The notes under the pieces: generated by a model
What the model was told of the DNA's origin: nothing
Databases searched by the model: none
What the model saw: only the letters and a program-made list of their open reading frames with translations
Program-made: the position numbers and the translations under genes
Origin: Planctomycetota bacterium
GTDB lineage: Bacteria > Planctomycetota > PLA2 > JAEUHO01
Assembly (NCBI GenBank): GCA_965223505.1
Contig: CBDCWP010000041.1
Span: 1-64,000, forward strand
Direction: 5' to 3'
DNA length: 64,000 bases
Shown here: positions 1 to 48,142 of the stretch, piece by piece
Position numbering within the stretch: position 1 is the first letter of the stretch
Layout of the letters: each line of letters opens with the position of its first letter

Positions 1-141
1 GTGCCCTTGGCGAGGAGTTCGCGCCACCGGGCACGGCGGCCTGGAGCCAGCAGTTCGGCTACCGCGAGATCATCTCCGGGCGTCCCCATGACCAACATCC
101 TACATCCATCCGTGCAGCCAAGGCCGTCGTACGATGGCGGG

Positions 142-480
142 ATGCAGAACATCCGGTTCGAGGTACGCATCAACGAGGAAGTCGTCACGACGGCGGGCGT
201 CGATGGCTACGGCGTCCTGACGGCGATTCTCTCGTGGGTGCTACACGATCCGGATCGGATCCCGGAGCACGTTCGGTCGGGCACAGTGGACGAGCAGGCG
301 GAGTGGCTTCAGGAAGACCTGCGTATTCAGGTCGGAGGACTGGGCTCCGCTGGAAACCTCGACTGGGCGGATCAGCGCCTGAAGCTCGGCGACGAGGTCC
401 GCATCCGCGTGATGCCGCCCGGCCCAGTAGATGAGGCTGAGGTCCGGCCAGCCATGTGCGGGGACCCTGCGGATGGCTAG
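142..480 (+). CDS. hypothetical protein
   Basis: ATG at 142 within ORF 1..480; globular-looking sequence (MQNIRFEVRINEEVV...LKLGDEVRIRV); its end overlaps the next start. Confidence 0.6.
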   Translation: MQNIRFEVRINEEVVTTAGVDGYGVLTAILSWVLHDPDRIPEHVRSGTVDEQAEWLQEDLRIQVGGLGSAGNLDWADQRLKLGDEVRIRVMPPGPVDEAEVRPAMCGDPADG

Positions 481-868
481 ATGGGACGTCAAGGCGCACG
501 GCCACGTCGATAACGCTGTCCGGCATCAGGTCGCGGATGCCGTCGAGGGCCACGGGAACCTAGGCCATGTCCTTGCCTGGGGGGCGGCCGCGAGTCCCCC
601 GCGAAAGCCGGAAGACGTCGTCACGCAGGACGAATACACGCACGATGTCATCATGCTCTTCCAGAGCGGGATCTACGTGGTGTACGACGTCACCTGACTC
701 GGGGCGGTACAGGGGGTCTCCGTGTGGGACCGGATACCGACAGCCGACGACTTGTTGGCCGCCCGCCTTCAGCGCGGCTGGACGCCCCAGGCGAGCGCCG
801 TCCGTGGGGGAGACAGGGTTCTGGGGCATGCGGCCTGCGCGGTGACACGGGCCGATGAGGCACCCTGA
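473..868 (+). CDS. putative selenoprotein (in-frame TGA at 695-697, codon 75 of 131 aa)
   Basis: The ORF ...EDVVTQDEYTHDVI...YVVYDVT-TGA continues in frame as LGAVQGVSVWDRIPTADDLLAARLQRGWTPQASAVRGGDRVLGHAACAVTRADEAP-TGA(866-868); a hairpin follows the first TGA. Confidence 0.65.
705..739 (+). promoter_or_regulatory. candidate bacterial SECIS element
   Basis: Lower stem CGGTA/TACCG, internal loop, upper stem GGTCTC/GGGACC, apical loop CGTGT with G at loop position 2; the loop starts 24 nt after the TGA. Confidence 0.55.
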
Positions 869-1093: not shown

Positions 1094-1140
1094 GGTTTCT
1101 AATCCGGCGGTCCCACGTTCGAGTCGTGGCGGGGGTGCCA
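1094..1140 (+). mobile_element. tRNA-Arg(TCT) 3'-half fragment, probable attachment (att) site of an integrated element
   Basis: Anticodon loop TTTCTAA, 3' anticodon stem TCCGG, variable loop CGGTC, T-arm CCACG-TTCGAGT-CGTGG, acceptor strand CGGGGGT-G-CCA; there is no matching 5' acceptor or D-arm upstream. Confidence 0.75.
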
Positions 1141-46210: not shown

Positions 46211-48142
46211 CTATTTGACGACGCGCTTGTTGCCGACGCGGCGCGAGAACCCGGATTTGTCGAGCGCCTCGAGCAGCGGGATGACCCACTTGCGCGTGGT
46301 GTTCATCACGGTGCGCGCGTCGGCAGGCGTGAATCCGCCCTGCGCCTGCGCGATCTCGGCCAGCTTCGCCTTCTGTGCTTCGAGCCAGCCCGCGTCGAAC
46401 CAGAAGTCCTCGGCCTTGAACACGAGACGGCGTTGGTGCAGGAGACGCAGCGCGCGGTTGAGCTCGGGGCTCGACAGACGCAGCTCCGCCTCCAGAGCGT
46501 CCACGGCGGGCGGCTGCCCGCCGCCGGCGGCAAGCAGCGCCAGGATGCTGTCGCAGCGCGCCTTGTCCTCCGGGGGGAGGTCGGACGAGTGATCCTTGTG
46601 CCGGACGTTGCCGTCCGCAGTCCGCACGAACGTGCCGGCGGCGGTCAAGCGATCGAGAACGGTGTCGAGCACGACGGGCTCCGTACGGCCCGCGGCCGAC
46701 CGCACCGCTGCGAGCGAGAGGGCGTCGACGGCGGCGTCCTTCTCGTGCAGCTTGCGAACCGCGGCTTCGACGCGCCGCGCGACCTTCTCGAACGCCGCGC
46801 CGGTGATCCAGCGGCCCGAGCGCCCCACCGCGACGGCCTCGCCGGACGACACGAGCGCCTCGACGAACGCCGGCAGCGAGCGGGGCTGCAACGCGGTGGC
46901 GGCCGCGATCTCGTCGAGCGTGCAGCCGCGCTCGCCGGAGGCTGTGATGCACGACGTCACGAGCGCCTGCGGATCGTCGAGGTGCTCCGCGAGCGCCATC
47001 AACGCGTCGAGGCGGCCCTGGCGGCGCGGCGGAATGCGCCGGGTCAACAACTCGACGACGACGCCGCCCCCCCACGTCGACGACGCGTTCTCGGCGCGAA
47101 GCACCAGACGGTCACCGGGCGCCGCGACGAACGGCTTGTCCGACTCGAGCTCCACGATCGCGACGCCGCCCTTCTCGATGGGCTTGCGCGACGGCACGTG
47201 GACGCGCACGACGACCTGGTCCGACCCCAGATGCAAGCGCGCGCGATCGCCGTGTTCGATCCGCTTGCGAACGCTCTTCAGGACGCGCAACTTCGCGGCG
47301 ACACGATGGACGGGCTTCAAGACGCCGGCGGTCGCCACGACCATGCCGCGCTTGACCTTGTCGACGTGGATGTCGGTGAGCGCGAGCGCGGCGCGATGTC
47401 CCGCGCGGGCGTCTTCCGACGATCGATGGTGCACCTGGATCCCACGCACGCGGCTCGGCCACACGGCCGGAAGCACATCGACGCGGTCGCCGTCGGCGAT
47501 CTGTCCGGAGATCGGAATGCCGGTGACGATCGCGCCGCGGCCGGGCGCCAGGAACGAACGCAACACCGGCATGCGGAAGATGCGCGCGTCGTCCGCGCGC
47601 TTCACGGACTCGGGAATGGTCGCCGAGATGGCGTCGCGCAACTCCTCGACGCCGTCGCCCGTCTCGGACGAGACGTAGAGGATCGGTGCGCCTTCCATGC
47701 CGGTCGTCGCGAGCAGGTCGCGGACCTCCTCGGCGGCGATGTCGCACATCTCCCTCTCGACGAGGTCCGTCTTGGTGAGCGCGACGACCAGGCGCGTCAC
47801 CCCGAGGACGTCGAGGATCTCGACGTGCTCGCGGGTCTGCGGCATCGGACCGTCGTCCGCCGCGACGACGAGCAGGGCGAGGTCCATCGCCGTGGCGGCC
47901 GCGACCATGGTGCGCACGAGCCGCTCGTGGCCGGGAACGTCCACCAACCCGACCTCGGTGCCGTCCTGGAGGCTGAAGGTCGCGTAGCCGACGTCGATCG
48001 TCATGCCCCGCTCGCGCTCCTCGGGCAGCCGATCGGCGTTCATCCCGGCCGTGAGCCGCTTCACGAGCGCAGTCTTGCCATGGTCGATGTGCCCGGCGGT
48101 CCCGAGGATCACACGGCGTACGGCGGGGGCGGTTGAGGTCAT
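46211..48142 (-). CDS. selB: selenocysteine-specific translation elongation factor SelB
   Basis: [51 protein letters not shown], and a C-terminal winged helix [13 protein letters not shown]...RRVGNKR. Confidence 0.95.

Follow-up and report, generated by a model that had tools for sequence, protein, structure and literature searches.

A probable small selenoprotein from a Planctomycetota bacterium and its apparently uncatalogued family

Introduction

Does an in-frame TGA in a small bacterial gene end a protein of 74 residues, or is it read as selenocysteine (Sec) in the middle of a protein of 131? The question is raised by an open reading frame (ORF) at positions 473-868 of a 64,000-nucleotide (nt) stretch of DNA from a Planctomycetota bacterium (assembly GCA_965223505.1, contig CBDCWP010000041.1, positions 1 to 64,000; this whole stretch is called the window below). 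An earlier reading of the bare sequence, which we call the original prediction, had proposed that this ORF is a selenoprotein gene with a selenocysteine insertion sequence (SECIS) hairpin just behind the TGA. Selenoprotein genes are systematically mis-annotated, since UGA is taken as a stop. Our analysis indicates that 473-868 is very probably a genuine Sec-encoding gene, and that it belongs to a widespread, Sec-dominant and apparently uncatalogued family of small proteins.

The coordinates, the 131-residue frame, the TGA and the hairpin are present in the sequence as the original prediction described them (Table 1). The frame opens with ATG 473, preceded by GGGGA, and gives 131 residues if the TGA at codon 75 is read through; an alternative in-frame ATG lies at 431, and the homologues start near 473. 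The surroundings of the TGA in the window read YDVT-TGA-LGAVQGVSVWD, or, with Sec in place, YDVT-U-LGAVQGVSVWDR. The whole frame matches the family profile over its full length (153 bits). The pattern of GC content at third codon positions (GC3) agrees with the frame upstream of the TGA and is less distinct downstream of it.

Table 1. Features of the window discussed in the text
Feature	Position	Strand	Remarks
Selenoprotein gene (probable)	473..868	+	131 codons including Sec75; terminal TGA at 866-868
In-frame TGA, probably read as Sec75; motif YDVT-U-LG	695..697	+	homologous TGA in genome and metagenome loci
SECIS-like stem-loop	705..739	+	lower stem 705-709/735-739; upper stem 715-720/726-731; loop 721-725
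Codons of the conserved QDEYTHD segment (Q52-D58)	626..646	+	from family alignments; D53 and D58 invariant
TGC codon of Cys122 in LGHAAC	836..838	+	possible resolving thiol
selB, Sec-specific elongation factor	46214..48112	-	TIGR00475, 335.7 bits against a cut-off of 242; same 64-kb window
Upstream ORF, 130 residues from ATG 88	88..480	+	coding-like GC3 pattern; context only
tRNA-Arg(TCT)-like 3' half	1096..1140	+	CCA end, no 5' half; possible attachment-site (att) remnant, context only

An in-frame TGA conserved across the family

Two scans at the DNA level were used to follow the codon through the family. The first covered genomes, one per species, was seeded with a four-sequence alignment and kept the best 80 of 224 relatives; the second covered Joint Genome Institute (JGI) metagenomes, was seeded with three proteins of the Cys form and kept the best 80 of 235. 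The homologous codon is TGA in 80 of the 80 genome loci and in 77 of the 80 metagenome loci, the other three having TGC, and none of the 160 loci has TAA or TAG there. Note here that one of the two search patterns in each scan demanded a sense residue at the site, so that TGA loci could enter only by way of the second one, whose span leaves the site out; any bias of the scans therefore ran against TGA. The genome loci belong mainly to Gemmatimonadota and Myxococcota, with a few from Planctomycetota and Acidobacteriota. The same codon is also TGA in a second copy within the same genome (contig C40), in G151 and G255, and in G020, the orthologue from another genus of the same taxonomic family.

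The two halves of the protein thus lie adjacent and in frame, split by TGA or by TGC, as the original prediction had anticipated. It had also named the observations that would speak against it, namely N-terminal halves ending at TAA or TAG and a frame that loses its conservation behind the TGA; neither was seen, the downstream frame being strongly conserved and, in the family alignments, as conserved as the frame before the TGA.

A profile search of 1.84 billion protein representatives returned 689 matches at an expectation value (E) of 0.001 or below, and the site was classified in 151 proteins, the best 150 of the 689 plus P0002, against the family profile. Only 26 of the 151 span the site uninterrupted. 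Another 76 end before it, 75 of these exactly one residue before and without any tail, while 46 begin just after it and one spans it with a gap there; the remaining two (P0087 and P0139) gave long matches but are low-complexity repeat proteins and hence spurious. At least 121 of the best 150 are therefore half-proteins, and with 75 of them ending right at the site, the truncated hypothetical protein of about 74 residues is indeed the usual form of this family in the databases.

This picture drawn by gene callers, in which 75 representatives are pieces of the N-terminal half and 46 of the C-terminal half, also fits a quite different explanation, in which the TGA is a true stop and the locus is either a split gene whose two polypeptides assemble or, in this genome, a nonsense pseudogene. 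TGA is an ordinary stop elsewhere in the genome, and frameshifts are found in the paralogue on contig C40 and in the G023 copy. Several observations go the other way. The C-terminal fragments start at any M or V over profile positions 70-95, so that no restart site is conserved; all 157 loci with a stop at the site use TGA, and not one has TAA or TAG; fused Cys forms occur; conservation after the TGA equals that before it; and the window copy has no lesion in 473-868 other than the TGA. Together with the protein model described below, these make a true stop very improbable. A nonsense pseudogene had been suspected from a first, word-indexed protein search, which found three homologues only, none of them interrupted, with R at the site in one and W in two; it was dropped once the deeper searches showed TGA at nearly all loci and Cys as the most frequent of the other residues.

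Among the 26 uninterrupted homologues the site residue is C in 12, W in four, S in four, R in three, and P, G and V in one each. Every one of these except P and V is a single base change away from TGA, which would fit Sec as the ancestral state. The core of the original prediction, a selenoprotein of unknown function, is thus supported by the conserved TGA, by the TGC loci and by Cys in 12 of 26.

The four W forms, which include the early matches P0003 and P0004, raise the possibility that UGA is simply leaky and is decoded now and then by a near-cognate Trp-tRNA, giving a 74-residue form and a minor 131-residue form with Trp75. UGA followed by C is a weak terminator, and a C does follow the TGA in the window, as it does in at least 90% of both SECIS alignments. 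That C, on the other hand, simply opens a conserved Leu codon; Cys outnumbers Trp at the site by 12 to four; and TGC is the sole non-TGA codon seen in DNA. An apparent TGG in G023 is not a Trp codon but is mimicked by a 4-nt deletion that shifts the frame. Trp read-through is very improbable, and the hairpin and the gene content described in the following sections both speak against it.

A constrained hairpin follows the TGA in most of the family

In most members the TGA is followed by a hairpin, GACGGC-GGUC-GCCGUC, which begins 11 nt after the UGA and has six base pairs (bp), 15-30 to 20-25, where positions are counted from the U of UGA. All six pairs form in 68 of 82 distinct genome loci, 67 with a GGUC loop and one with an AGUU loop. 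The codons that encode it are almost fixed: codon +5 is ACG in 62 of 62 cases (gene-wide frequency 0.56), codon +6 is GCG in 69 of 71 (0.44), codon +7 is GTC in 80 of 82 (0.51) and codon +8 is GCC in 71 of 71 (0.42), whereas codon usage outside codons +5 to +8 is at background. The majority hairpin is under strict synonymous-site constraint.

Pairing across 133 distinct sequences from both collections reaches 96.1% of cells against 86.9% after shuffling, and the covariation score is 0.295 against 0.139; neither value was reached in 500 shuffles (0/500 each), counts that are not probabilities, the 133 sequences being mutually related. In control helices whose partner columns were shifted by 1 to 3, 22-74% of cells pair. 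Pair 15-30 is GC in 54 sequences, CG in 35, AU in nine, GU in four, UG in one and unpaired in 30; pair 18-27 is GC in 125 and AU in five, and pair 17-28 is CG in 125 and UA in four. The outer two bases of the loop covary as well (GC 81, AU 51), and the compensatory changes fall on synonymous positions. The hairpin is lost in two of the three TGC loci, where the peptide AVAV has become AIGI or AIAI; the third TGC locus, which is almost identical to TGA loci, retains it. Trp read-through offers no explanation for a covarying hairpin at a fixed spacing with a G-U in its loop.

A separate observation concerns the region 3' of this hairpin. In the majority form (L032-L190), columns 34-39 after the UGA contain an Asp codon that is GAT in 67% of cases, where the gene-wide share of GAT is 30%. 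This hints at a further RNA constraint, for example a possible extended lower stem.

A shifted hairpin in the window's own subgroup

The window does not carry the majority form. It falls in a subgroup of 11 members, made up of the window, the paralogue on contig C40 and nine genome loci (Planctomycetota, Thermoanaerobaculia and a single member of the Myxococcaceae), in which the peptide after the site reads G/S/T-V-S-V-W-D where the majority has T-A-V-A-V-W, and in which between zero and four of the six ancestral pairs form. Instead, all 11 members have GUCUC-NGUNU-GGGAC, 7 nt downstream of the majority register. The inner five pairs of the upper stem (716-720/726-730) are formed in 55 of 55 cells, with a CGUGU loop in nine members and GGUCU in two, and RNAalifold independently predicts the same helix, 716-720/726-730, for the subgroup. 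A metagenome locus (L178) has the same shifted form. Codon choice in the subgroup lends it partial support, with GTC for Val and TCN for Ser in 11 of 11 members each, where the gene-wide expectation would be about half and about 0.6.

In the window itself the lower stem is CGGUA/UACCG, the upper stem GGUCUC/GGGACC and the apical loop CGUGU, with an energy of -13.9 kcal/mol for the whole structure and -8.2 for the upper hairpin alone. The bacterial SECIS (bSECIS) consensus, as quoted in a 2026 review, calls for a loop of 3-9 nt with a G within its first two positions, an upper stem of 4-16 bp, a distance of 16-37 nt between UGA and loop and a minimum free energy (MFE) of -7.5 kcal/mol or below (PMC13188914). 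The window's hairpin fits this consensus, with a 5-nt loop, a 6-bp stem, G then U from loop position 2 and 23 nt between UGA and loop, and its -8.2 kcal/mol passes the -7.5 cut-off. The original prediction had pointed to rare codons, GTA and ATA, in the lower stem, and this is borne out in 1410 long ORFs of the genome, where GTA makes up 2.6% of Val and ATA 0.5% of Ile codons.

A further alternative accepts a true selenoprotein and places the SECIS of the subgroup elsewhere, either in a weaker hairpin at the ancestral register, for which the candidate pairs are A17-U29, G19-C27 and G20-C26 around a loop with G22-U23, or in another element altogether. Positions 21-24 after the UGA in the window are still GGUC, as in the majority form, four of the six ancestral pairs can still form in L060, L065 and L070, and the free MFE fold of the window has a small hairpin near the ancestral register. 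Only three of the six ancestral pairs form in the window, however, and between zero and two in L062, L084 and L089, whereas the downstream hairpin forms in 11 of 11 members, is the RNAalifold consensus and is lengthened in the window by a lower stem of two very rare codons. We consider this alternative improbable, and infer that the shifted hairpin is the working SECIS of the subgroup. The pattern in the 11 members is suggestive of selection on structure in the window's own hairpin. If so, one protein family would have two SECIS registers, with a 7-nt move in one branch and the UGA unchanged.

Selenocysteine machinery and the genetic code

The machinery for Sec is complete in this genome. Besides selB, which lies in the window, it has a tRNA-Sec (69 bits against a threshold of 47, called by ARAGORN as tRNA-SeC(tca)), selA (507 bits, above cut-off) and selD, also above cut-off and itself of the Sec type, in which an in-frame TGA stands in the G-U-x-x-K context that is usual for selD. 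Among 30 other genomes that carry the TGA form, selA scores above the curated cut-off in 27; of the remaining three carriers, whose assemblies are incomplete, one has a selA fragment at a contig end and two are without selA. Trp read-through would leave the presence of selA in 27 of 30 carrier genomes unexplained.

A genome-wide reassignment of TGA (code 4 or 25) was ruled out, since TGA ends 547 of the 1410 long ORFs, against 771 for TAG and 85 for TAA. TAG is an unusual leading stop at 69% GC, and TGA usually dominates such genomes.

Some tRNA calls made by ARAGORN in this genome are recorded here as observations in their own right. At least 17 tRNA genes lie on contig C40, where second copies of tRNA-Trp and tRNA-Arg(acg), 71 and 75 nt long, fall at about 191-235 kb, and odd calls with 4-base or 2-base anticodons occur on contigs C13, C14 and C21.

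A small protein without a recognised fold

An AlphaFold2 model built on a 104-row alignment predicts one compact domain (mean predicted local distance difference test score, pLDDT, 93.8; predicted template modelling score, pTM, 0.87), with two helices, then a sheet, followed by a helix at 91-100, a beta-hairpin and finally a C-terminal helix of lower confidence that holds Cys122. Residue 75 is placed in the turn of a beta-hairpin with strands 67-74 and 78-85. A single predicted domain in which this beta-hairpin crosses the TGA site argues against two separate polypeptides. The N-terminus has no hydrophobic leader, and the product is predicted to be a cytoplasmic alpha/beta protein of 131 residues. 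D53, D58, P89 and W103 are invariant or nearly so, and Q52, E54, T56, G77, W85, R98 and G102, among others, are the next most conserved. Cys122, which the original prediction had suggested as a resolving partner, is Cys in 73 of 82 TGA-type relatives and is kept also in the R and W forms; a selenenylsulfide between Sec75 and Cys122 is perhaps possible.

Searches for a named family were negative. The original prediction had proposed looking for a selenoprotein hidden Markov model (HMM) in NCBIfam, and the window protein matches no family in Pfam or NCBIfam at E <= 1, which we read as the family being uncatalogued; 27 family members including Cys forms gave scattered single chance matches only in the same two libraries (E >= 0.011), and PHROGs and PADLOC had no match for the window protein. 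Structure was equally uninformative: Foldseek against the PDB returned nothing at E <= 0.001 (best 0.15, template modelling score 0.27), a PDB sequence profile search gave a chance match only (E 0.62), and the ESM Atlas, queried with a natural Cys-form homologue, gave no usable match.

The top match in VIA-align is to OsmE (the group of 4dm5_A, 3d4e_A and 4fr9_A; Z 6.2, root-mean-square deviation 2.9 over 81 residues). The feature shared with OsmE, BamE and BLIP-like folds is two helices packed on an antiparallel sheet, at 5-14% sequence identity and with Z below 8, the tool's range for what may be just a common arrangement. OsmE, BamE and BLIP-like proteins are exported lipoproteins or inhibitors, unlike the leaderless window protein; no function can be transferred. 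The window protein has neither UxxC nor CxxU, the context of the Sec being T-U-L-G, as opposed to thioredoxin-fold selenoproteins; no thioredoxin-like chain appears among the fold matches listed, and absence from those lists does not amount to exclusion.

What could Sec75 do? A lone Sec in an exposed turn near a Thr, an acidic and His-containing segment and a semi-conserved distal Cys lead us to two guesses: thiol or selenol redox chemistry, which might hold with a chance somewhat short of even, and metal or metalloid binding, which we find distinctly less likely.

Genomic context, distribution and probably decaying copies

The upstream ORF, with its stop TAG at 478-480, overlaps the start of the selenoprotein gene by 8 nt (ATGGCTAG), which suggests possible translational coupling. 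This ORF has no match in Pfam, NCBIfam, PHROGs or PADLOC. The commonest neighbouring gene family occurs at only seven of 79 related loci, loci against which the upstream ORF itself was not searched, and with no neighbour family at more than seven of the 79, the neighbourhood gives no operon clue to function.

The gene is rare in its own phylum, with a match in five of 201 sampled genomes, and occurs in three of 40 genomes of its own order. Of the phylum matches, those in the window's own genome (G000), G151 and G255 have the TGA, the one in G023 is frameshifted, and G139 has two weak matches that contain no stop codon. In a quick maximum-likelihood tree the window groups with a locus titled Planctomycetota, with a branch support of 99 by the Shimodaira-Hasegawa-like approximate likelihood ratio test (SH-aLRT). 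The tree largely follows phyla, with many forks unresolved, and gives no clear sign of a recent transfer of the gene.

Two copies appear to be decaying. The second copy in the same genome (L002, G000:C40:169510-169734, minus strand) is 72% identical to the window's over the C-terminal two thirds and has the same TGA and the same hairpin, but 1 nt is missing from its QDE motif and 21 nt are missing upstream. The copy in G023 (L024, G023:C127:135681-136042) carries the 4-nt deletion mentioned above, in which the last base of the TGA is lost together with the next three. Unless they are assembly errors, L002 and L024 look like decayed copies.

The original prediction had also placed the gene on the island side of an attachment site, as possible mobile cargo. 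The segment at 1096-1140 agrees with the 3' half of the genome's tRNA-Arg(tct) at 35 of 44 positions, with the T-arm intact, the T-stem differences compensatory and the acceptor strand and CCA present, much as expected of an att remnant. Neither ARAGORN nor Rfam makes a call there, and there is no second copy of the segment in the assembly. The contig begins at window base 1, 472 bases upstream of the gene, and the other island border and an integrase lie beyond view.

Discussion

Several of our results weigh against Sec in this protein, or against the hairpin assigned to the window. The scans at the DNA level show the best 80 of 224 and of 235 relatives only; more distant and possibly Cys-richer forms lie outside these sets, and there may be more Cys forms among the 144 genome and 155 metagenome relatives beyond them. 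In 14 of the 26 uninterrupted homologues the site holds a residue other than Sec or Cys (W, S, R, G, P or V, seen at the protein level only), and the quick tree places the R, W and P forms near the subgroup of the window. The site residue may thus be dispensable in some lineages, which would be a poor fit to a catalytic redox role. Both the second copy in the same genome and the G023 copy are frameshifted. As for the hairpin, the stem of the subgroup is invariant, shows no covariation and encodes the conserved V-S-V-W-D, so that protein constraint alone could explain its conservation, and the lower stem is not conserved in the relatives of the subgroup. The 66-nt stretch folds no better than its dinucleotide shuffles (z = -0.11; +1.12, +0.48 and +0.76 in relatives), the unconstrained MFE fold of the window's stretch is a different structure, and Rfam has no family at 695-760 even at E <= 10. 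With energies no better than those of shuffles, the support for this hairpin comes from its relatives and not from thermodynamics.

Set against the conserved TGA, the TGC and Cys forms, the constrained majority hairpin and the complete machinery, these points leave a Sec-encoding gene as by far the best explanation of 473-868, and we infer from the sequence comparisons that Sec is inserted at UGA 695-697. As the ribosome arrives, the hairpin just downstream of the UGA would bind SelB carrying guanosine triphosphate (GTP) and Sec-tRNA(Sec); the element contacted by SelB would be the upper stem 715-720/726-731 with its CGUGU loop, whose G-U lies 26-27 nt after the UGA. SelB would then supply Sec in place of termination by release factor 2. 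The product would be a compact alpha/beta domain with the Sec in a beta-hairpin turn beside a conserved Thr, following the acidic QDEYTHD segment.

A broader reading joins several of these elements: an uncatalogued family with an unmatched fold, widespread in aerobic soil phyla (Gemmatimonadota, Myxococcota, Acidobacteriota and Planctomycetota), overwhelmingly dependent on Sec (157 of 160 loci), with a Sec outside any CxxU or UxxC motif, a selenium chemistry beyond the thiol-oxidoreductases and a shifted SECIS. That all of these hold together is doubtful, and we put it forward tentatively. If so, could the T-U-L-G turn beside QDEYTHD point, for example, to a role in binding a metal or metalloid or in passing it on?

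If the family were recognised, hundreds of gene models from soil metagenomes would be put right. Being Sec-dominant, with no thioredoxin motif and no known fold, it would offer a clean case for studying selenium retention in aerobic soil bacteria, and two SECIS registers within one family would be a natural experiment on the spacing tolerance of SelB. It adds to a known kind of system and brings no new principle.

The recoding of UGA through a SECIS and SelB is textbook knowledge, and the gene fits its bacterial archetype, E. coli fdhF, with the same arrangement of an in-frame UGA followed by a short hairpin with a G-U in a small apical loop. The majority form, with its 6-bp stem, GGUC loop and 11-nt spacing, closely resembles the minimal fdhF element. 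The window's subgroup departs from this, its hairpin being placed 7 nt beyond the majority register with a CGUGU or GGUCU loop, and the protein is unrelated to formate dehydrogenase.

Among catalogued families the comparison is with small proteins of a similar kind. A 2026 review lists 119 prokaryotic selenoprotein families and subfamilies, nearly all with HMM accessions (PMC13188914), a list of roughly 119 to which the present family would add one. No family in the portions of its Table 1 that the comparison covered has a T-U-L-G motif or otherwise fits, and the HMM libraries that hold those accessions were unmatched. The nine new families of the deep-Sep paper are different from this one, and BSepDB, by its description, was built on families already reported. 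A search of full-text literature, with subscription journals and supplementary tables outside its reach, found no description of the family and no QDEYTHD peptide, and the family is, on these searches, apparently uncatalogued. The nearest counterparts in the review are its hypothetical families without known domains, such as Hypothetical proteins DG, DW, DF, GOS_B and GOS_C (PMC13188914), similarly small proteins with one Sec, of unknown function and with Cys homologues. Like these, so far as they are described there, the present family has TGA homologues in other Sec users and is usually split or truncated in annotation; unlike them, it has no HMM match and is concentrated in soil phyla rather than in marine or anaerobe lineages. 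What is new here is thus the protein family, its unmatched fold and its two apparent SECIS registers, within a recoding mechanism that is itself already known.

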